Below are positions 4,277 through 33,370 of a stretch of DNA of 64,000 bases, piece by piece. The translations under genes and the position numbers were made by a program. Under the pieces are notes generated by a model. That model was given only the letters and a program-made list of their open reading frames with translations, had not been told where the DNA came from and searched no databases. Origin of the DNA: Escherichia coli (lineage in GTDB: Bacteria > Pseudomonadota > Gammaproteobacteria > Enterobacterales > Enterobacteriaceae); the NCBI RefSeq assembly GCF_013315695.1, contig NZ_CP054353.1. The stretch is one strand, 5' to 3'. The stretch's first letter is position 1, and each line of letters begins with the position of its first letter.

Positions 4277-4405
4277 TATACTTGTCATAATTCAAGTTGC
4301 ATGTGCTGCATCGATGTTCGCTCACCCAGGTCACTTACTTATGTAAGTTTCTGGAAATTCATTATTTGTTCCCTTCCTGCAACTTGACTTATTTAGAGTA
4401 TATTC
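4277..4405. repeat. ERIC/IRU intergenic repeat, degenerate copy
   Basis: Contains ttcaagttgcatgtgctgc and cgctcacccaggtcacttacttatgtaag; about 80% identical to the copy at 49934-50062, which matches the ERIC1R/ERIC2 primer sequences. Confidence 0.8.
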
Positions 4406-4614
4406 ATGTATATGAATAATATTCTTGCAATAATAGCTTTAAAGTATTGCATGCGGATAACTGAGGTGAAATTCCTGTTTTAGGATTATTGTCACTTTAT
4501 TTTCCTGGTTAGACATATAGCTGACTGGTTTGTTTATTTGAATTATGATATTCATTAGTGCTACTGTTTTTTATAAAATAATTTTTGAATTGTTATTTTT
4601 TCACGGACGGCATT

Positions 4615-5523: not shown

Positions 5524-5550
5524 CTGCGCCTGGCGGGATGCCAGGCGCAG
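5524..5550. terminator. bidirectional hairpin between the convergent LysR and adenosyltransferase genes
   Basis: 10-bp perfect stem ctgcgcctgg / ccaggcgcag with 7-nt loop. Confidence 0.6.
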
Positions 5551-5553
5551 TTA

Positions 5554-6156
5554 TTACCAGTCGATACCCGGCTGGGCCTGAATGCCGTTATCAAAAGCAT
5601 GTTTGACGGGGCGGATTTCGCTTACCGTATCCGCCATTTTTAATATCTGACTGTGGCAACCGCGTCCGGTGACAATGACACTTTGTTGTGCCGGGCGGTT
5701 TTGCAGAGAAGCGATCACTTCTTCGGTGTCCAGATAATGGTAAGCCAGCATATAGGTCAGCTCATCAAGCACCACTAAGTCGTAACGCTTGTCAGCCAGC
5801 ATCCGTTTGCTTTCCGACCAGACCTCTTTCGCCGCGTCGATATCCGCTTGCCGGTTCTGTGTCTCCCAGGTAAAACCGGTTCCCATAATATGAAACTCAA
5901 CCCCCAGCGGCTGGAGAAGGTTGTATTCGCCGTTGTCCCATTGCCCCTTGATGTACTGCGCAACCCCCACCGTTTTGCCATGACCCACCGCGCGCGTCAC
6001 AGTACCAAACGCGGCAGTGGATTTCCCTTTGCCGTTGCCGGTGAAAACAATCAAGATCCCTTTTTTCTCTATCGCCGCCGCGACGCGCGTATCGACCTGT
6101 TCCTTCAATTTCTGCTGGCGCTGCACATGCCGTTCAGTTGAAATTCGCGCTTCCAT
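5554..6156 (-). CDS. ATP:cob(I)alamin adenosyltransferase (CobA/BtuR family), second copy
   Basis: 200 aa; P-loop VFTGNGKGKSTAAFG; near-colinear with E. coli BtuR as recalled. Confidence 0.85.
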   Translation of the reverse strand: MEARISTERHVQRQQKLKEQVDTRVAAAIEKKGILIVFTGNGKGKSTAAFGTVTRAVGHGKTVGVAQYIKGQWDNGEYNLLQPLGVEFHIMGTGFTWETQNRQADIDAAKEVWSESKRMLADKRYDLVVLDELTYMLAYHYLDTEEVIASLQNRPAQQSVIVTGRGCHSQILKMADTVSEIRPVKHAFDNGIQAQPGIDW

Positions 6157-6165
6157 TCATTTTCC

Positions 6166-7818
6166 TTAATGTCCCGCAGGGCAACTGGCGCAGCGGTGTT
6201 TCTGCTCAAACTGACTAAAGAAATTATTGCCTTTATCATCTACCAGGATGAATGCGGGTAAATTTTCCACTTCCATCATCCACACCGCTTCCATACCCAG
6301 CTCCGGGTATTCCAGGCAACGCAGACTTTTGACATATTCTTGCGCCAGTAACGCAGCTGCACCGCCAATACTTCCCAGATTGAAGCCGCCATGTTTGTGA
6401 CAGGCATCGGTGACCTGCTGGCTGCGGTTACCTTTCGATAACATCACCAGACTGCCGCCAGCCGCCTGGAAGGTATCGACATAACCGTCCATTCGACCGC
6501 CCGTGGTTGGACCCAGTGAACCGCAGGCCATGTTCTCCGGTGTTTTCGCCGGGCCAGCGTAATAGACAATATGATGCTTCAGGTAATCCGGCATCGGTTC
6601 GCCGCTATCCAGCCGCGCTTTTATTTTGGCGTGGGCGATATCGCGCGCCACTACGATGGGACCACTTAACGACACGCGGGTGCCTACCGGTAATCTGGCG
6701 AGATCCTGCATCACGTCACGCAACGGACGATTTAGATCCAGCTGTACATGTTGCGCGTGATTTTCTTCCCGCAGTGAGGCTGGAATATATTGCCCCGGAT
6801 TGTGTTCGAGTTTTTCCAGCCAGATACCGTGCTTGTTAATTTTTGCTTTGATATTGCGATCCGCAGAACAGGAGAGCGTCATAGCTATCGGGCAAGAGCC
6901 ACCGTGACGCGGCAGACGAATGACGCGAATATCATGAGCGAAATATTTACCCCCAAATTGCGCACCAATACCAAATTGCTGACTGGCCTCGAGCAATACT
7001 TTTTCCAGCTCAATATCACGGAATGCTTGTCCTTGCTCGTTTCCGCTGGTGGGCAAATTGTCGTAATATTTCGTTGAGGCCAGCTTGGCAACTTTTAAGG
7101 TTTGATCGGCTGAAAGCCCTCCGACGACAAAGGCGATGTGGTAAGGCGGGCAGGCAGCGGTGCCCAGCGATTTCATTTTTTCGATTAAAAATGCGGTCAG
7201 TTTTTCTGGTTGCAATAGGGATTGGGTTTCCTGATAAAGCGCGGCTTTATTGGCAGAGCCGCCCCCTTTATTAATACAGAGAAAATGGTACTCATCACCA
7301 GCGACGGCGCTGATATCAATCTGCGCCGGGAGATTGGTTTGCGTATTGACTTCGGTAAACATATCCAGTGGCGCATTTTGTGAAAAGCGCAGATTATTTT
7401 CCTGAAAAGTGGTGTAAATGCCTTTGCTTAAGGCTTCAGCGTCGTTACCTCCGGTCCATATCTGTTGCCCTTTACTGGCAACAATAGTTGCGGTGCCGGT
7501 ATCCTGACAGTTGGGTAATACCCCTTTTGCTGAGACTTCAGCATTACGTAATAACTGCAACGCAACGTATTTATCATTACTACTGGCGTGCGGATCGTTA
7601 AGAATGCTGGCGACCTGTTGCAAATGAGCGGAACGTAAGAAAAAAGAGGCTTCATAAAATGCCTGCCGGGCAAGCAGCGTTAATGCTTCAGGAGCGATTT
7701 TTATCACTTCTTCGCCGTCTAATTCCGTTACTGTAATATGTTGATCGCTAATTAATGTATATTCTGTACCGTCTTTATTTTGTAGAAACGGTTCTTGCCA
7801 GATAAATGGTTTGGACAT
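6166..7818 (-). CDS. fumD: class I (Fe-S) fumarate hydratase family; probable mesaconase/fumarase FumD
   Basis: 550 aa, FumA/FumB-like length and N-terminus ([11 protein letters not shown]...); lies in the methylaspartate operon. Confidence 0.8.
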
Positions 7819-7925
7819 ATTTCACTTTTCACCTTAAACGTTAGTTTTACTTAATTGCCGTCTAACTTCATGATCCGGCTTATAAAAATGCGTAGTCATT
7901 GGCTTCTGATTGCTTAAGATCCCCC

Positions 7926-9206
7926 TCAGGGCAGAGCAACGTTCGATTCATTGGGTTTTAATGCTTTACCCCGACAGCCCTCGCCGAAATGTTCGCCTTC
8001 CCACCGACTCACCATCGCAGCGCCCATTGCGTTGCTCATGACGTTTGTCGCGGAACGCCCCATATCAAGGAACGGATCAACGCCCATCAGCAAGATCAGC
8101 CCCGCTTCCGGAATATTGAACTGGTTGAGCGTGGCGGCGATAACCACCATTGAGGCGCGTGGTACGCCAGCCATTCCTTTCGAGGTCAACATCAGGATCA
8201 ACAGCATGGTGATTTGCTCACCGATGGATAAATGGATATTGCAGGCCTGGGCGATGAAAACTGTGGCGAAGGAGCAGTAGGCCATTGATCCAACGAGATT
8301 AAATGAGTAGCCAATGGGTAAGACAAAGCTGGCAATTTTGGGGGAAACGCCAAATTGCTCCAGTTTTTCAAGCGTTCCCGGAAAAGCCGCTTCAGAACTG
8401 GATGTGGTAAATGCCAGCAGGGCGGGTTCCGAAAGGGCACGGGTCAGGCGTCTGATGCAGGGGCCGACATAAACGATGGCCAGACCGATAAGCAGCACCC
8501 AAAGTAACAACATGGTGAAATAAAATTCACCCATAAAGATCCCGGCGCTCACCATAACTGCCAGTCCTCGTTCAGCAATCAATGCTGAAATAGCGGCGAA
8601 TACGGTCAGGGGAGCGAAGAGCATGACGTAGCCAGTGAGCTTTAACATGGCATGTGCCAGCGAATCTAAGGCGTGAACGATGGCGCTGCCTTTCTCACCA
8701 ATCGCCGTCAGGCTACAGCCGAGGAAAATTGAGAACACCACGATTTGCAAAATTTCATTGTGCGCCATGGCATCGACAATGCTGGTGGGGAAAGCATGCG
8801 AAATAAATACTTTTAGTGTAAAGGGTTCTGACGCGACCACTCCGGTGGTTTCGGCACCGTGTGCAACAAAATTAATTCCTGTGCCTGGCATGAAGAAATT
8901 TACCGTTATCAAGCCTAAGGCAATTGACAGCAATGAGGCGCAAATAAATAAAAAGAGTGTTTTAGAAAAAATACGACCAAGGGCTTTGGCATCTCCCATT
9001 TTAGCTATACCTACCACCAGGGTAGAGACCACTAACGGAGCGATAATCATTTTTATCAGTCGTAAGAAAATCGTCGTGAATATCGATATTTCTTGCGCAT
9101 AGAGTTTTGCGGTTTCCGGTGAAGCAGTGTTATTGAGCACTACGCCGATAATCATTCCAAGTACCAGCGCCAAAAGAATCATCGTGGTTAAACTTATTTT
9201 CTTCAT
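7926..9206 (-). CDS. DctA-like dicarboxylate/amino acid:cation symporter (DAACS family)
   Basis: Polytopic membrane protein of DctA-like length; start moved to the ATG at 9206, which is preceded by GGAGGA. Confidence 0.8.
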   Translation of the reverse strand: MKKISLTTMILLALVLGMIIGVVLNNTASPETAKLYAQEISIFTTIFLRLIKMIIAPLVVSTLVVGIAKMGDAKALGRIFSKTLFLFICASLLSIALGLITVNFFMPGTGINFVAHGAETTGVVASEPFTLKVFISHAFPTSIVDAMAHNEILQIVVFSIFLGCSLTAIGEKGSAIVHALDSLAHAMLKLTGYVMLFAPLTVFAAISALIAERGLAVMVSAGIFMGEFYFTMLLLWVLLIGLAIVYVGPCIRRLTRALSEPALLAFTTSSSEAAFPGTLEKLEQFGVSPKIASFVLPIGYSFNLVGSMAYCSFATVFIAQACNIHLSIGEQITMLLILMLTSKGMAGVPRASMVVIAATLNQFNIPEAGLILLMGVDPFLDMGRSATNVMSNAMGAAMVSRWEGEHFGEGCRGKALKPNESNVALP

Positions 9207-9251
9207 TTTTTCCTCCATCAGGTGCACGGCGATAAATCAGAATCAGGAGAA

Positions 9252-9283
9252 GTAGATGCCTGAATAGAGATTCAGGCATCTAC
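9252..9283 (-). other. intercistronic stem-loop (14-bp perfect stem, 4-nt loop) inside the operon
   Basis: gtagatgcctgaat agag attcaggcatctac; no U-run follows on the transcribed strand. Confidence 0.5.
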
Positions 9284-9366
9284 CTGCTATTACAACCTTA
9301 CAAATAGCTGAAGTGTTGAACTGCAATAAGTGACGGGATGTCAGTTGGCTAAAAGTATTCGGATTT

Positions 9367-9684
9367 TTACAAATCGAAACTCATATTTAATAAAGGTGCA
9401 TGTTGCTGTGCACCATAGACATCATTGTCACCTACATTCCCGGAGATAATATCTCGTGGCATGACGATTTTTACTGCGTTAGAAGGATCAAACCAGACAA
9501 TACGGTGAATAAAGTCAGGTTCAACATGATATAAGCGCGCAATCAGTTCTGGGGTTAATTGCCCTGATGATTTAACTCGCTCATAGTTTTCTTTCGTTTT
9601 AAATAAAATATCTAAAACCAGTTCGTAAGGTCCGGCATTTTTCGAACGAATGACTTGCGCCAGTGAGACAATTGACTGTTTCAT
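9367..9684 (-). CDS. small protein of unknown function (DUF4387/AtuB-like by recollection)
   Basis: 105 aa ORF whose start overlaps the stop of the upstream gene by 4 nt (translational coupling). Confidence 0.6.
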   Translation of the reverse strand: MKQSIVSLAQVIRSKNAGPYELVLDILFKTKENYERVKSSGQLTPELIARLYHVEPDFIHRIVWFDPSNAVKIVMPRDIISGNVGDNDVYGAQQHAPLLNMSFDL

Positions 9685-11051
9685 GCCTGAACTCCTTCTG
9701 GCGTCACCTGTTCAATATGGAAATCAAAACGCAGAGCGTCGTTGGCTTCAATCAGGTGATATATGGAAAATTCGTATACCGGCCCGCCCTGGATATCAGA
9801 AGGGGAGAACGGGAACGCCAGATTGCCTGCGGTAGCGATGCGGTTTTCATAGCCGTAGTGCAGCATGGTAGAGCGCACCAGCGAGCAAACGCTATTGGCA
9901 ATTTCCTGGGTCGGTGCAACTACATCAAGGACAATCCCCAGCTCATGCCCGGCAGTTTGCATCGGTTCATGGTCGCCCATCACCCCGTTTTTGCCGTACA
10001 GGTGGAAATTGATGCGAATGCTGTCATCGTCGAGCGACAGGTTACGCCAAACGCTGGTTTTGACTTCATCGATGATTTTATCGATCCCGGCGATCATGAT
10101 CGGGTCGCGCGTTCCTGCGATGGTCAGACAGCGGAAGCCCACCCGTCGCGCACCTTCCAGTTTCAGGGCATACGGCGTTTCTTCATGCTTAGAACCGCTG
10201 ACGTACACTTCGCCGTCATTGACCGCTTTAAATGTGCAGCCTTTCAGGTTCAACACGCCGCCAGGTCCAGGCAGGAAGTAGGGATCGGATTTCTCATACA
10301 GTGTGTGTGCAGCCGCTGACGTTTCGGTAAATTTACGCTTCGGATTAAATGTCTTCAGCGTAAAGCCGTTGTCATCAATGATGCCCATCGCACAGTCAGA
10401 GCCTGAGCCGGGCGTTGCGGCGATTGCCGCGCATTCAAGGATTTTCCCACAATGCAGCGCCAGACCTTCATCAAAGCCTTGCATGATCGGGAGCGCAGCA
10501 AAGCAGGCCGGGTCGTAAGCGCGCCCGCCCAGCACCACTTGCGCGCCTTCTTTCAGCGCCCGCTGGAAGGGTTCGATGCCCATTTGCGCGACGATATACG
10601 TACTTTCGTCAATCGCGTCGTGGGTTAACGGCGGGACAAAATCCAGCGCCGTGATTTTGCCGTTATCCAGCGCCTGGTGGACGATGGCTTTGTCAACGTC
10701 TGCCGGGATCAACGCCATCGAGAACGAGAGGTGCTCTTCCTGGGCAATCTCATGAATTATTTCTCGGCACCACTCCAGGTGTGGTGCGGCACCAGAACCG
10801 CCAGCTGTTCCGATCACCACCGGTATATTATTTTGCACGCCTGCGGTGATCATATAGCGCAGATCGCGCTTGACCCCTGCGCGATCGGTAAACGGTTTGC
10901 CTGCCCCGAGGTAGTGGGGGCCTGGATCGGAAGAGCCTGCATCAACGGCGATCAGATCGGGCGATTCTGCCATCGCTTTGCGGAAGCTCTCTTCCGGGAA
11001 TCCATACCCGAGGATTGCCGTTGGCGATAAGACTTTAAAAGAACGAGCCAT
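9681..11051 (-). CDS. DUF1446 (AtuA-like) family protein, function unknown
   Basis: 456 aa; family assignment is from memory of the N-terminal region and is unverified. Confidence 0.6.
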   Translation of the reverse strand: MARSFKVLSPTAILGYGFPEESFRKAMAESPDLIAVDAGSSDPGPHYLGAGKPFTDRAGVKRDLRYMITAGVQNNIPVVIGTAGGSGAAPHLEWCREIIHEIAQEEHLSFSMALIPADVDKAIVHQALDNGKITALDFVPPLTHDAIDESTYIVAQMGIEPFQRALKEGAQVVLGGRAYDPACFAALPIMQGFDEGLALHCGKILECAAIAATPGSGSDCAMGIIDDNGFTLKTFNPKRKFTETSAAAHTLYEKSDPYFLPGPGGVLNLKGCTFKAVNDGEVYVSGSKHEETPYALKLEGARRVGFRCLTIAGTRDPIMIAGIDKIIDEVKTSVWRNLSLDDDSIRINFHLYGKNGVMGDHEPMQTAGHELGIVLDVVAPTQEIANSVCSLVRSTMLHYGYENRIATAGNLAFPFSPSDIQGGPVYEFSIYHLIEANDALRFDFHIEQVTPEGVQA

Positions 11052-11054
11052 TTG

Positions 11055-12296
11055 TTAATCCTTAGCCTGCAACAGCGCGATAGTACGATTCATTTCGTTG
11101 AAGACGATATCGAGGCCTTCGTCAAAGCCCATCCCTGGCTTTACCAGCATACGCATAGGGCGAGCGGCAAGGGCGACGTGGACACAGGTGCGGGCACTGA
11201 CATCAGTTTCATTGCAGGTGCCGCCCTGGTACGCTTCCATGCTGTGGCTGTTGCAGTAAAGAACCGCATCGACGATGTTGTGAATACTGCCCAGATCCGG
11301 GGTTTTGATTTGCACCATGTGACAACTGGCGGCATCAGTGAAATCAACAATATCCTGGTAGGTGTTACACCATTCATCGGCCACAATTTTCACGCCGGAA
11401 CCGAGGCGCGTCAGCTCTTTGGTAATCGCGGTCAGCAGGCGAATTTGATCGGGCTTGTTACCGGCATCGACCGGCCCTTCAATGTAGAGCGGCAGGCCTT
11501 GCGCTTCTTTTTCCAGGCTGGCGATGTATTGCGCACAGCGAAGCGGATCCATATCGAAGATCAGGCCGATAGTGCCGTATACATCGATGTGCAGGGTTGG
11601 GTGGTAGCGTGCGCTGGTGCGCTTGCTCAGAATACGATCCGACAGCCAGCGGACATATTCGCGCAGTTTTTCACCTTTAAAGCCCAGTTTCTCTTCGACG
11701 TTATTAATCAGTGCATGGGGCAGCACGTCGATGCCCTTAAGGATCATCTTATCGACGGCGATATATCGATCGTCCCCGCTCTGACCAAATAATGGAATGG
11801 ATTCCGCCACGCGTGGCAACTGCCATTCATCACAGACCACTTCAGTTTTCAGACGGCCGGTTGCCAGCGCGGTAGCATCAAGCAGCGCCTGTGATAATCC
11901 GTAGCGCACGGCGGTATGCAGCAAGTTGCCGTCAATACGCAATTTGTCGAAGAAACGGGCATTCGGCAGGAAAGCATCCACATCGCGGCCTATCAGTAAT
12001 GGCTTGATATGGTCGTTGAGGAACGGAATAAAGTGCTCAGCGAGGAACAGTGGATCGCGACCACCTGCCCCGGAATACTGTACGGCAGCACAGTCACCTA
12101 CGGCGACCGCGCCGTTTTCCAGAATCAACTGTACCGATACGCACTCCCCGGCCTGACGAACGGCGTTAAACCCCTGTGTTACCGGCTCCCCGGTATAAAA
12201 AAAGCCGTCATGACCCGCTCCGTTTTTTATCGCCTGCTGGTCATCGAAATAGAATGAGGAGTAGCCAGCAGTGAACAGAGCCTGTTTTATTTTCAT
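11055..12296 (-). CDS. mal: methylaspartate ammonia-lyase (beta-methylaspartase)
   Basis: 413 aa; N-terminus MKIKQALFTAGYSSFYFDDQQAIKNGAGHDGF matches clostridial MAL. Confidence 0.9.
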   Translation of the reverse strand: MKIKQALFTAGYSSFYFDDQQAIKNGAGHDGFFYTGEPVTQGFNAVRQAGECVSVQLILENGAVAVGDCAAVQYSGAGGRDPLFLAEHFIPFLNDHIKPLLIGRDVDAFLPNARFFDKLRIDGNLLHTAVRYGLSQALLDATALATGRLKTEVVCDEWQLPRVAESIPLFGQSGDDRYIAVDKMILKGIDVLPHALINNVEEKLGFKGEKLREYVRWLSDRILSKRTSARYHPTLHIDVYGTIGLIFDMDPLRCAQYIASLEKEAQGLPLYIEGPVDAGNKPDQIRLLTAITKELTRLGSGVKIVADEWCNTYQDIVDFTDAASCHMVQIKTPDLGSIHNIVDAVLYCNSHSMEAYQGGTCNETDVSARTCVHVALAARPMRMLVKPGMGFDEGLDIVFNEMNRTIALLQAKD

Positions 12297-13741
12297 TATG
12301 GTCTTCCTATTAATTTACTGTGGGATACAGCATTGATGTCATCTACAACCATCTGGAATGTCGGTTGGCGTCCTTCAAAGCGTGCGCGTTCCGCAACGTA
12401 ATCGTGGTGGAGGTCGAGAATATCTTTTGGCAATGGAACGGCTCCGGCTTCCAGTACGCGTATCGCGCCGGTGTTGTCACGGACCGGAAGAATTTTGCCC
12501 GCGTTGCAGGCGGCTGGCGCAAACGGCACATCCAGTACGCCCGCTTCAAATGCCAGCACCGTACCGCGCGCAATATCACCATTACCCAGTTCGAACACTT
12601 TATTCAGTACCGCGTGAACCTCGCTCTTAATCAGTTCAATTTCCAGTTCAACCGCAGGGCACGGCGGGAATTTCTGCTCGTTGACCATGTTGAGCATCTG
12701 GCGGGAGGCTTTCAGCCCCTGAATGTTGGCAGCGGCAGTCGGGATGCCCCAGGCTTCGTGCGGACTTTTGGTGATGACTTTGGTGGCACCAGACATCCCC
12801 GCGACGGCTGCGCCCCAGGAGATAATAGCGAACGCTTTCGATTCGTCTTCCGGAAAGCCGCCCATCCACTGGTGAAACACGGTACTTAATTCATAGTCGG
12901 TATAGCCATAGCTCTGAAAATATTCGTGTGCAAGTTCACGCAGAGACTGGATCGCCGCAACATCCTGCGTCAGGCTGCCGACCTGTCCATAACCAACGGT
13001 GATAGATTTCACACCCTGTTCCAGCGCCAGTAATCCTTCGATTATCGCGATAGAGTGCGAGATAAACGGCGGGATCAGGGTACCCGTTAGTGGGCCAAAC
13101 GGTTCGCGGTTGATGCGGATCCCGTGTTCTTCATACATCCCCATTAAACGGTCGCAGTACTGCCAGTCGCGGATCGATTTTTCCAGCGTTACGCGCTTGG
13201 CATACGGAATGTTGTAGGAAATGCCGCCGCCTTCATAACTGGTAAAGCCGCTGGCCATCGAGATTTCAGCCAGCAGACGCGCATCTGGCGTGCCGTGGCG
13301 GATCTGTAGCGGTTTTTGCAAAGTTTCGGTGAGGCGACGGCAAGCTGCGACGCCGTGGTTAACGACCGGTAAACCGTTCAGTTTAGAGGTTCCGGCTTCG
13401 ATGGATTTTTTAATCCCTACAGCCGCTTCTTCGTACCGATTCAGACGGGTATATGCGTCGATGGTGCTCGGCAGCAGATCGCATTCTTCTTGTAGTGTTT
13501 TCAGTAGTTCGATGTGTTCGTCCATCAGCGCCACGCCTGCGCGCGGTTGGCTAAGAGTTTTACCTTCCTTGTCTGCTTTCAGCAGGGCAAGAGAGAAGCG
13601 TTTATGCTCAGGAATGGTTTGTTGGTATTTAACGCCATCTTCAAAGTTTTCAACATCCTTGCCGGTTTCCCAGGTTTTCAGTACCTGTTGCCGCTCGGTC
13701 ATGAATTCGTCATGGGTTAATTTCTTATTTCGAAGTTCCAT
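12296..13741 (-). CDS. glmE: glutamate mutase epsilon (E) subunit
   Basis: 481 aa; N-terminus MELRNKKLTHDEFMTERQQVLKTW resembles clostridial GlmE/MutE. Confidence 0.88.
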   Translation of the reverse strand: MELRNKKLTHDEFMTERQQVLKTWETGKDVENFEDGVKYQQTIPEHKRFSLALLKADKEGKTLSQPRAGVALMDEHIELLKTLQEECDLLPSTIDAYTRLNRYEEAAVGIKKSIEAGTSKLNGLPVVNHGVAACRRLTETLQKPLQIRHGTPDARLLAEISMASGFTSYEGGGISYNIPYAKRVTLEKSIRDWQYCDRLMGMYEEHGIRINREPFGPLTGTLIPPFISHSIAIIEGLLALEQGVKSITVGYGQVGSLTQDVAAIQSLRELAHEYFQSYGYTDYELSTVFHQWMGGFPEDESKAFAIISWGAAVAGMSGATKVITKSPHEAWGIPTAAANIQGLKASRQMLNMVNEQKFPPCPAVELEIELIKSEVHAVLNKVFELGNGDIARGTVLAFEAGVLDVPFAPAACNAGKILPVRDNTGAIRVLEAGAVPLPKDILDLHHDYVAERARFEGRQPTFQMVVDDINAVSHSKLIGRP

Positions 13742-13759
13742 TGATTGCAGCCTTAATTG

Positions 13760-15148
13760 TTATAGGGTTAAGCATTGAATACTGGTGCGCGCGGCGGCCA
13801 GCGGATCGACTCTGGCGACGTTTGCCAGCAGTGGTAATAGCCCCCGGGAATCGCGGTAATATTCAAATTCGGTCGGTAAGAGAATGCGTTTACCGTCGTC
13901 GTTTAACTCGCGGTATTTCAACCAGTGATGCATATCGAACTGACTGGCACGCGAGAGCCATCCGCCGGATCCGACGACTTTACGCACGGTTGTCAGGTCA
14001 CGTCCCATCTGTAAATCGACATTGCCGACGCAGGTGCAGACCTCTTTTTTGGTGCCCGCATGTCTTTCGGTGGCATAACCCACACACAGTCCGGCCAGGA
14101 CTGTATCGAAATATTTTTCTTCTGCATTCGCGGGTAAGTAGTCGGGATGAGCGACTAGATGACGGAGGTAATGATAAAAAGCGTCCAGCTGTGCGGGTTG
14201 CTGAGCAAAATTCACATTGACTAACTCTTTCGCACTTTCACCAACCACCATTGCCGAGACGCGCATTCCCAGATCGCCTTCCACCGTCCGTTTCACGAAG
14301 GGTTCCGGTACGCCGTGTAAAACGGTGTCGGGCGAGAGCGTGTTGGCACAGGCGGAATAGACATCGGTGGTTGCGCCACCCATGTCGATCAGTATGAACT
14401 CTTTCCAGCTGTGATCGACATTACTGATTGCCTTAACCAGTTCAAAGACTGTCCACGGTGTCGGCATTGGTTCTTCGCCTGTTTTATCAACAACGACATC
14501 CAGCCCTTTCCCTTTAACGATGCGTTTAAGGAATATGTCGCAGATAGCCTGGCGTGCAGCTAAAGGGTTCGGATGGTCAAGATCGGGCAGAACGTTGTCG
14601 ACGATGGTCAGGTCTTTATGCCCTAGGATCTCCTGCACCTCGTCCTGAATATCCCGGTTTCCGGCATAAATAATGGCGCAGTCGAGTTTGGATTCTGCCA
14701 GCACACGGGCGTTATTCAGGCCGTAGCTTTCTTCTCCGCCGTCGGTGCCGCCGGTGAACAAGAGAATATCGGGCTGCGTTTCTTCCAGTGCCTGGATATC
14801 ACGGCGGTTCAGCTTGTAGGAGTAATATTGCGCAATTTTAGCCCCCGCAGAGTGAGCGGTTACTTTCGCGGTTTCCAGGGTGATAGAAGGCACCAATCCC
14901 ATTGCGGCAACCGCCAGCCCACCTTTGGCAGAGGAGGAATACTTCAATGCAACCTCACCGTTGTTAAACAGGGGGAGGGTATTATCTACGTTTAACACCA
15001 GGTTCAGGCTGGAGAAAAACCCCTTCGCCAGATGATGGGTGGTGGTTGGGGTCAGTACGTGGTTAACCAACGTTAACGCGTCCCCCTCCCGGGCGAAGAG
15101 GGCTGCTTTGGTCCACGTCGATCCAATATCGACAGAGACGATTTGCAT
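13760..15148 (-). CDS. glmL: glutamate mutase L component (MutL/GlmL)
   Basis: 462 aa, the size of clostridial GlmL; sits between the S and E subunit genes. Confidence 0.8.
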   Translation of the reverse strand: MQIVSVDIGSTWTKAALFAREGDALTLVNHVLTPTTTHHLAKGFFSSLNLVLNVDNTLPLFNNGEVALKYSSSAKGGLAVAAMGLVPSITLETAKVTAHSAGAKIAQYYSYKLNRRDIQALEETQPDILLFTGGTDGGEESYGLNNARVLAESKLDCAIIYAGNRDIQDEVQEILGHKDLTIVDNVLPDLDHPNPLAARQAICDIFLKRIVKGKGLDVVVDKTGEEPMPTPWTVFELVKAISNVDHSWKEFILIDMGGATTDVYSACANTLSPDTVLHGVPEPFVKRTVEGDLGMRVSAMVVGESAKELVNVNFAQQPAQLDAFYHYLRHLVAHPDYLPANAEEKYFDTVLAGLCVGYATERHAGTKKEVCTCVGNVDLQMGRDLTTVRKVVGSGGWLSRASQFDMHHWLKYRELNDDGKRILLPTEFEYYRDSRGLLPLLANVARVDPLAAARTSIQCLTL

Positions 15149-15597
15149 CAGATTGCCTCTTCAAGAATACGAGTATCAACGTCATGACGTTGGTTGATAT
15201 CGTGTGCCATCAGCTGACAAACATCTTCTAAGTCATGACTTGGGGCAAAGACGCGATCAAATCCCATCTCTTTGAATTTGGTTTCCACGTCAGCGAAGTC
15301 ATGTTTTCCGACCACCAGGTTACCGCCCACATAGAGCAGGATGTCCCCCAGTCCACGCTCGATGCAGCGTTCGCGCATGCCCAGACAGTCGATATCGCCA
15401 TGCCCATAGATAGAGGAGACGACAATCGCGTCAGCGCCAGTTTCAATGGCCGCATCAATATATTCGTCCTGGCTGACCATTACGCCCAGATTAATGACTC
15501 TGAAGCCATGGTTGCTAAAAACGCGGTCCAGAACTTTATTGCCTACTGCATGGCAGTCCGCGCCAATAACGCCAATCACAAGTGTTGCTTTCTTCAT
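15148..15597 (-). CDS. glmS: glutamate mutase sigma (S) subunit, cobalamin-binding
   Basis: B12-binding domain; start taken at MKKATLV (15597), preceded by AAGGA, rather than the longer ORF from 15660. Confidence 0.85.
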
Positions 15598-28285: not shown

Positions 28286-28312
28286 AAAAAAGCGCCCTAA
28301 AGGCGCTTTTTT
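28286..28312 (+). terminator. rho-independent terminator after lysQ
   Basis: aaaaaagcgcc ctaa aggcgctttttt. Confidence 0.8.
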
Positions 28313-28416: not shown

Positions 28417-28471
28417 GTCATCCTGCACGACCCACCAATGTAAAAAAGCGCCCTAAAGGCGCTTTTTTGCT
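28417..28471 (+). repeat. direct repeat: tRNA 3'-end fragment plus second copy of the lysQ terminator
   Basis: gtcatcctgcacgacccaccaatgtaaaaaagcgccctaaaggcgcttttttgctat nearly duplicates 28262-28316. Confidence 0.8.
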
Positions 28472-33295: not shown

Positions 33296-33370
33296 GTCGG
33301 ATGCGCCGTCAGAGTGGCGTATCCGATTAATCACCGGAGGCCTGATAAGACGCGCAGCGTCGCATCAGGC
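33296..33370. repeat. REP/BIME element (two palindromic units)
   Basis: gtcggatgcgccgtc...ggcgtatccgat and aggcctgataagacgcgcagcgtcgcatcaggc. Confidence 0.8.

Follow-up and report, generated by a model that had tools for sequence, protein, structure and literature searches.

In E. coli operons, the best-documented role of stable stem-loops is to stop 3'-5' exonucleases once an endonuclease has cut the mRNA, which leaves the operon segments with different stabilities, as at malE-malF; REP elements stabilise the mRNA upstream of them. At papB-papA, RNase E cuts upstream of a hairpin, which then protects the downstream mRNA. The structures of protective operon stem-loops are conserved among enterobacteria, and most of the examples assembled genome-wide by Dar & Sorek lie within the downstream coding region (Dar & Sorek 2018, PMC5927463). 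Here we describe a hairpin in a long intercistronic spacer of the methylaspartate (glutamate-fermentation) operon of E. coli, located in a 64-kb stretch of DNA that was analysed as a whole and is referred to below as the window. Comparison of sequences across genera indicates that the enterobacterial methylaspartate-operon transcript contains a structured RNA spacer, conserved and locus-specific, in which this hairpin forms the dominant helix.

The glutamate-fermentation cluster has been described by Kronen & Berg, whose account does not mention the spacer (PMC4682846). In E. coli it is an accessory locus, found in 1124 of 5426 genomes, O157:H7 included, and the region surrounding the hairpin (8700-9900) shows 100% identity to many complete genomes. 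The gene string, read from the ORF map and from the RefSeq annotation of an identical strain, runs along the minus strand as glmS-glmL-glmE-mal-atuA-DUF4387 and, beyond the spacer, as symporter-fumD-cobO (Table 1); it bears out the placement of the hairpin, in the initial annotation, between a DUF4387 gene and a transporter gene of a co-directional string. The six upstream genes, from glmS to the DUF4387 gene (9367-15597), have ends that overlap or nearly abut. We predict that the whole string from glmS to cobO forms one operon, because the genes share a strand and the spacer holds no sense-strand promoter-like or terminator-like site. No sense-strand sigma-70-like promoter was found in the E. 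coli, Citrobacter or Yersinia spacers; an internal promoter for the symporter gene was rejected on this ground, and sigma-54 and CRP-like motifs, sought by eye, gave no fit. The terminator-like hairpin 3' of cobO is likely the end of the operon. Between the symporter gene and fumD the operon has another long spacer (7819-7925, minus strand), which folds no better than its shuffled versions (z = +1.6), in contrast to the DUF4387-symporter spacer.

Table 1. Features of the methylaspartate operon and of the DUF4387-symporter spacer, in order of transcription (positions in the window).
Feature	Position	Strand	Remarks
glmS	15148-15597	minus	
glmL	13760-15148	minus	
glmE	12296-13741	minus	
Methylaspartate ammonia-lyase (mal)	11055-12296	minus	
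atuA/DUF1446	9681-11051	minus	
DUF4387 gene	9367-9684 (CDS)	minus	Final gene of the upstream enzyme block
Intercistronic spacer, DUF4387-symporter	9207-9366	minus	160 nt
Small upstream hairpin H1'	9308-9326	minus	UUGCAGU-UCAAC-ACUUCAG; from model alignment
P2' 5' strand	9291-9297	minus	GGUUGUA; counterpart of GGUUGGU in other genera
Main hairpin H3	9251-9284	minus	14 Watson-Crick pairs plus closing G9284·U9251; loop CUCU at 9266-9269
P2' 3' strand	9228-9234	minus	UAUCGCC; imperfect pairing with 9291-9297, two non-standard pairs
Shine-Dalgarno sequence of symporter gene	9212-9216	minus	GGAGG
Symporter gene, dicarboxylate/amino acid:cation, GltP-like	7926-9206	minus	First gene 3' of the hairpin; ATG at 9204-9206
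fumD, mesaconase/class I fumarase	6166-7818	minus	
cobO, adenosyltransferase	5554-6156	minus	
Terminator-like hairpin 3' of cobO	5524-5550	minus	Tail GUUUUAC; positive comparison for terminator score

Annotations of the locus vary between genomes. In O157:H7 Sakai (NC_002695.2; locus L065, 21934-23618), the DUF4387 gene ECs_0759 is named 'acyl-CoA synthetase' and the atuA/DUF1446 gene ECs_0760 is named '3-methylaspartate ammonia-lyase', and both names conflict with those that PGAP gives to the identical proteins elsewhere. The annotation of strain M114 (L003) lists atuA as a pseudogene, with a stop inside the gene. A contig labelled as a Collinsella sp. MAG (JAIJJM010000101.1, L007) most likely reached its actinobacterial bin as E. 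coli contamination, because its DUF4387 protein is 100% identical to that of E. coli and its spacer matches the spacer of the window. At the 3' end of the spacer, an AUGGAG block is invariant in all 37 aligned spacers. In E. coli, an in-frame AUG (within GAUGGAGG, 9218-9216, minus strand) stands 4 codons 5' of the annotated symporter start and a GUG (9227-9225, minus strand) stands 7 codons 5' of it; the corresponding AUG of other genera is not in frame; it opens a short frame, AUG GAG UAC ACA UGA, whose UGA overlaps the true symporter start.

On the plus strand, positions 9252-9283 read GTAGATGCCTGAAT AGAG ATTCAGGCATCTAC, a perfect 14-bp inverted repeat with a 4-nt spacer, and the perfect stem and 4-nt loop originally called there were confirmed both by reading the sequence and by separate inverted-repeat detection. 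The RNA of the transcribed (minus) strand is G-GUAGAUGCCUGAAU-CUCU-AUUCAGGCAUCUAC-U, in which the closing G·U adds a 15th pair; the plus strand, with A·C at that place, lacks it. The 15-bp stem contains 6 G-C pairs, and the hairpin folds with a dG of -22.8 kcal/mol on the sense strand and -22.4 kcal/mol on the antisense strand. It begins 82 nt past the DUF4387 stop codon and finishes 45 nt short of the symporter ATG. No other perfect 14-bp stem with a loop of 3-10 nt occurs in the 64-kb window, none appeared in 10 shuffles, and the analytic chance expectation for such stems is 0.0019 per 64 kb. Typical RNase III substrates are RNA duplexes of roughly 20 bp or more, about two helical turns; the E. 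coli stem of 15 bp and the Citrobacter stem of 15-16 bp are shorter than these.

Scanning 100,044 species genomes for the DUF4387 protein returned 58 loci, and in nearly all of the Enterobacterales among them the symporter gene lies 120-240 nt after the DUF4387 gene. A hairpin of different sequence (e.g. GCGUGCGUCUGAGC...GCUCAGGCGCACGC) stands at the homologous place in 33 other species of Enterobacteriaceae, drawn from Citrobacter, Klebsiella, Enterobacter, Salmonella (arizonae, diarizonae), Buttiauxella, Lelliottia, Pluralibacter and Raoultella. Between E. coli and Citrobacter braakii, the 14 pairs differ by 7 double substitutions and one change of C-G to U·G, and all 14 are kept. In an alignment of 37 sequences (A2 columns 90-130), 13 of the 15 pairs of the main helix have changed on both sides; 93.6% of cells are paired, compared with 28-41% when the 3' partners are slid, and the observed covariation was reached in none of 500 shuffles. 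The same helix contains 59 G·U cells and 13 A·C cells, an excess which argues that pairing is preserved on the sense transcript of the operon and not on the opposite strand or in DNA alone. As judged from these alignments, it is the pairing of the hairpin, and not its sequence, that is under selection on the transcribed strand, as would be expected of an RNA-level stabiliser or processing signal. The two sides of the H3 stem (identity 0.74-0.76) and its loop (0.65) drift near the neutral rate, codon position 3 standing at 0.67.

In every enterobacterial lineage, the DUF4387 gene is followed by at least one hairpin, of -12 to -33 kcal/mol, and the sequences of these hairpins are unrelated, as seen in Yersinia, Morganella, E. 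whittamii and Escherichia sp. E1V33. In the last two (loci L010 and L009, respectively, 4318-4610), the symporter gene is absent and 268-290 nt separate the DUF4387 gene from fumD; this spacer is of unrelated sequence, yet it begins with a hairpin of -17 to -19 kcal/mol. In Morganella morganii and M. psychrotolerans (L044-L051, ~4355-4400), the hairpin after the DUF4387 gene has a constant outer stem (UCGGUGUGG...CCACAUCGA) around an inner 20-25 nt that is wholly different among species and strains and always self-complementary.

Within E. coli, alleles of the hairpin were tallied by exact-match counts over 1123 genomes, with dG calculated on a 36-nt construct. The perfect stem (dG -23.2) is carried by 610 genomes. 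An A>G change in the 3' arm, giving a U·G wobble (dG -22.5), occurs in 316, and an A>G change in the 5' arm, giving a G·U wobble, in 96. Rarer are A>U, with a U·U mismatch (30 genomes, dG -19.2), and U>C, with an A·C mismatch (17 genomes, dG -18.6), so that about 4% of E. coli genomes carry one internal mismatch through these two minor stem-breaking variants. A further 18 genomes have other alleles with 1 difference from that of the window, and 37 have alleles with 2-4 differences, one of which, when sampled, combined a G·U pair with two loop changes. For the common 3'-arm variant, the loss of stability is 0.7 kcal/mol on the sense strand versus 4.7 kcal/mol on the antisense strand. This pattern fits purifying selection on the RNA stem, as weak evidence, because no more than four mutational events lie behind the counts and the species is clonal. 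In one genome, that of strain 100416 (L002, 3178-3997; corresponding to ~9277-9680 of the window), IS1 is inserted at the hairpin: homology to the window stops at 9276, within a hairpin arm, the remaining spacer and the entire DUF4387 gene are deleted, and atuA directly adjoins.

The initial annotation was correct on the hairpin itself and missed that it is the central helix of a conserved structured spacer of ~155 nt. Outside Escherichia, this spacer comprises four elements, namely the hairpin H1, the helix P2, the main hairpin H3, and a block, UUAUCCGAUGGAG, that holds the Shine-Dalgarno sequence. In H1, 5 of 8 pairs show compensatory change. In P2, an invariant GGUUGGU pairs with ACCARCC around the main hairpin; 94-96% of its cells are paired, and its changes are mostly one-sided, with one G-C to U·G. 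Several blocks are conserved far beyond the 0.67 identity found at codon position 3 of the adjacent gene: GGTTGGTC has an identity of 1.00, and, in the non-Escherichia spacers, so does the unpaired GGUUGGUC, with CCCUAC at 0.92 and the Shine-Dalgarno block at 0.98. The motif GCUGUAUCAC in the H1 loop, also unpaired, is likewise conserved above synonymous sites in the non-Escherichia set.

A covariance model (R1) built from 33 non-Escherichia spacers alone, whose source members score 112-182 bits, weakly matches the E. coli window at 9204-9334 on the minus strand (27 bits; E ~1e-4 in 230 kb, 3.5e-7 locally). In the resulting alignment of the E. coli spacer, H3 is complete and H1' and P2' are aligned, H1' being a reduced counterpart of the H1 of other genera without their conserved 19-nt loop. 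Escherichia sp. MOD1 scores 28 bits and the Pseudescherichia group 22-27 bits, the latter with H1 and P2 present and H3 deleted. Hairpin strength is traded between H1 and H3 across lineages: H1 is stronger in the Pseudescherichia group, which lacks H3, and in E. coli a weak H1' accompanies a perfect H3. The E. coli spacer is a diverged and simplified member of the group, without the H1 loop and CCCUAC and with the most perfect H3. Neither the rest of the 64-kb window nor the other loci gave a further R1 match. When metagenomes were scanned for the conserved block, 82 stretches were returned, 38 of them real according to the model (at least 114 bits); all 38 sit between DUF4387 and symporter genes, and the spacer element is therefore locus-specific.

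Further pairings and insertions were seen in the spacer. A long-range E. coli helix, AAAUCCGAAU/AUUCUGAUUU, that appeared in the minimum-free-energy fold was rejected, as it is not conserved in Escherichia sp. MOD1. Two genomes and several metagenome contigs (e.g. L096, L088, L108, L113) carry insertions of ~110-210 nt in the homologous spacer, in the form of long imperfect palindromes that resemble ERIC/IRU elements. In Klebsiella oxytoca (L029, 4319-4515), such a palindromic insertion precedes H1, and in Citrobacter amalonaticus S646 (L018, ~4440-4570), an insertion lies inside the 3' internal loop and splits P2.

What might such a spacer do? We tentatively prefer, without giving it quite an even chance, the reading that it acts as a stable barrier in the intercistronic RNA, or as a processing element, in the manner of malE-malF, and would so set differential expression of the two parts of the operon. 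The stem-loop would act post-transcriptionally to uncouple the fates of the two halves of the mRNA. An endonuclease, probably RNase E, would cut in the downstream part, the hairpin would then block 3'-to-5' exonucleases, and the glmSLE-mal-atuA-DUF4387 mRNA would outlast the symporter-fumD-cobO segment. A mirror version, as in papBA, would have the hairpin cap the 5' end of the downstream segment. The direction and the mechanism we infer only from the anatomy of the locus. That a strong hairpin is present in every lineage despite unrelated sequence suggests a generic need for a stable stem-loop to end the enzyme block. The selected pairing on the sense strand, the negative terminator and promoter scans and the unstructured symporter-fumD spacer also favour this reading. 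Counted against the barrier reading are the Pseudescherichia group, which does without the helix, and the internal mismatch tolerated by a small fraction of E. coli genomes. A plain exonuclease barrier, moreover, does not need conserved unpaired blocks; because the unpaired GGUUGGUC, CCCUAC and the H1 loop all exceed synonymous-site conservation, a more specific function is hinted at, and in Citrobacter, Klebsiella and Enterobacter the spacer as a whole may serve as a specific regulatory RNA. A search of the literature and its supplements for usable transcript data on the locus (ECs0757-0762, Z0887-0892; EHEC Term-seq) found none.

It is unlikely, although less so than the remaining alternatives, that the spacer is instead a Rho-dependent intercistronic attenuator, in which the hairpin lies between unstructured, C-rich and G-poor tracts that act as a rut site. 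Poor translation of the symporter gene would then lead to termination downstream and lower symporter-fumD-cobO expression, the hairpin serving to join the tracts or to pause polymerase. Composition is the main argument for this: outside Escherichia, G makes up only 3% of the unpaired 5' leader and of the 3' internal loop, whose C/G ratios are 5 and 11.5, a conserved CCCUACAC follows directly 3' of the helix, and in E. coli, 78-nt windows upstream of the hairpin have C/G ratios of 1.7-1.9. The 160-nt untranslated gap would give Rho access, and in composition the layout resembles the rutA-boxB-rutB arrangement of lambda tR1. However, depletion of G would equally keep any spacer unpaired, Rho sites normally need no covarying 15-bp helix, and the E. 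coli region 3' of the hairpin is U-rich rather than C-rich (C/G 2.0, 53% U).

That the E. coli hairpin is a leaky intrinsic terminator, its strong stem and the tail UUCUCCUGAUUC halting some polymerases, we consider improbable. On the transcript this tail (also taken as UUCUCCUG) has 3-4 U in its first 8 nt, 4 if the closing G·U is open, and together with the stability of the stem this is what the idea has in its favour. The terminator scan, which asks for at least 5 U of 8, does not call the hairpin, and its absence from the terminator-like list upholds the earlier remark that no U-run follows the stem. The hairpin was also scored with a discriminant that combines hairpin and U-tract, by a formula that is reportedly that of d'Aubenton-Carafa from 1990. 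The E. coli hairpin scores -22.6, versus +2.0 for the operon-end terminator, and the score is negative in 37 of 37 aligned spacers, that of E. coli included. In most orthologues the tail has ~1 U in its first 8 nt, and the helix is followed by the C-rich CCCUACAC instead of U. A canonical intrinsic terminator was rejected because none of the 37 aligned versions has a usable U-tract, stable as the stem is. Selection has kept the stem across genera without any U-tract, which also counts against a leaky version. The different hairpin that follows the DUF4387 gene of Yersinia alsatica and Y. frederiksenii does have a U-run and is listed as terminator-like, in line with leaky termination at this place. 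The choice left by the initial annotation, between a stabiliser or processing element and a partial terminator, is narrowed by these results: a role at the RNA level is supported by covariation and strand asymmetry, and the terminator option is weakened by the uniformly negative discriminants.

A small probability likewise attaches to the hairpin being one helix of a specific regulatory leader of the symporter gene, responsive to a ligand, protein or sRNA, whose ~155-nt fold gates the ribosome-binding site. Covarying stems occur here together with unpaired blocks conserved well above synonymous sites, the element is always directly upstream of the symporter gene, and P2 closes the fold ~10 nt from the Shine-Dalgarno sequence. 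An alternative pairing of CCAUUGG with CCGAUGG, 93% paired, overlaps the Shine-Dalgarno sequence; it shows no compensatory change and competes with the covarying H1. Against a leader of this type, a search of Rfam 15 with permissive filters and with the cobalamin classes included gave no family match to the E. coli or Citrobacter spacer (E<=10), the best hits being eukaryotic miRNA and snoRNA models with E of at least 1 and far under their gathering scores. An all-against-all covariation scan of 54 distinct sequences gave no pseudoknot or extra contiguous helix, only isolated clade-driven pairs. The H1 loop and CCCUAC have been lost in E. coli, where H3 is nonetheless perfect, Pseudescherichia lacks H3, and the Escherichia species without the symporter gene keep a hairpin after the DUF4387 gene. 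Equally doubtful is the fuller proposal that the spacer is an undescribed cis-regulatory RNA that senses glutamate, methylaspartate, mesaconate or adenosylcobalamin, or binds a protein or sRNA, and so switches on the transporter-mesaconase-adenosyltransferase half of the operon. In that case E. coli would have a simplified version, with the hairpin as its surviving core.

Readings at the level of DNA were considered as well. A 36-nt query matched a single locus in each of 1123 E. coli genomes, reported as two 'places' because the palindrome matches on both strands, and no second copy of the hairpin lies within the 64-kb window. A search with the REP consensus (GTAGGCCKGATAAGRCG...), allowing up to 3 mismatches, found the canonical REP element GGAGGCCTGATAAGACGCGCAGCGTCGCATCAGGCAATG at 33336-33370, which served as a comparison, and did not match the hairpin. 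A REP/BIME or other dispersed repeat was rejected because the hairpin is single-copy in each genome, and also for want of a consensus match and for being bound to one locus in metagenomes; an operator for the neighbouring LysR-type regulator was rejected because the sequence varies while the pairing is kept. Elsewhere in the window, two identical perfect hairpins (AAAAAAGCGCC-N5-GGCGCTTTTTT), 156 bp apart at 28286-28312 and 28442-28468, have the shape of bidirectional terminators. That the hairpin is a palindrome in DNA without an RNA role (operator, cruciform or REP-like relic), or a product of chance, is very improbable: it is a perfect DNA palindrome, starts with GTAG, has GCCTGA/TCAGGC in common with the canonical REP and received IS1 in one strain, but its pairing outlasts its sequence, G·U cells greatly outnumber A·C cells, the common E. 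coli variants are cheap on the sense strand alone, it is a single-copy sequence that the REP search misses, and the chance expectation is about 0.002.

About one in five complete E. coli genomes and many opportunistic Enterobacteriaceae carry the methylaspartate cluster as an accessory trait, and its regulation and physiological role are unknown (PMC4682846). The hairpin, with its compensatory evolution, marks the one site in the operon at which the enzyme block and the transporter-mesaconase-B12-adenosyltransferase block are likely uncoupled, and its 15-bp stem offers a precise and small mutational target. Altogether, the spacer is a clean, covariation-supported intercistronic RNA element, outside current RNA-family catalogues, that was found by sequence alone.

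Set beside known systems, the element shares features with several. With lambda tR1 (rutA-boxB-rutB) it has in common, in composition only, a hairpin between unstructured C-rich, G-poor tracts. Like intrinsic terminators and attenuators, it places a strong stem-loop in the nascent transcript inside a transcription unit; unlike terminators, it lacks the U-tract, with 3-4 U of 8 in E. coli and ~1 of 8 in nearly all orthologues. It resembles REP/BIME elements in being an extragenic palindrome of ~32-35 nt with a GTAG start and a GCCTGA...TCAGGC core, yet it is perfect, single-copy in 1123 genomes, and vertically inherited with compensatory changes at one locus. As at papB-papA, an intercistronic hairpin is flanked by A/U-rich single strands and the downstream segment could begin with a 5' stem-loop; at papB-papA, however, the downstream genes are stabilised, and nothing here indicates this. 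With malE-malF and the Dar & Sorek set, the locus shares a stable hairpin, no U-tract, and the juxtaposition of an upstream block for soluble proteins with a downstream gene for a membrane transporter. The structure of the hairpin, as in the Dar & Sorek set, is conserved between related enterobacteria. The REP hairpins of malE-malF differ in that the present hairpin is single-copy and has a sequence of its own. Unlike the majority of the Dar & Sorek stem-loops, it lies in a long spacer and, outside E. coli, within a larger fold with conserved unpaired blocks.
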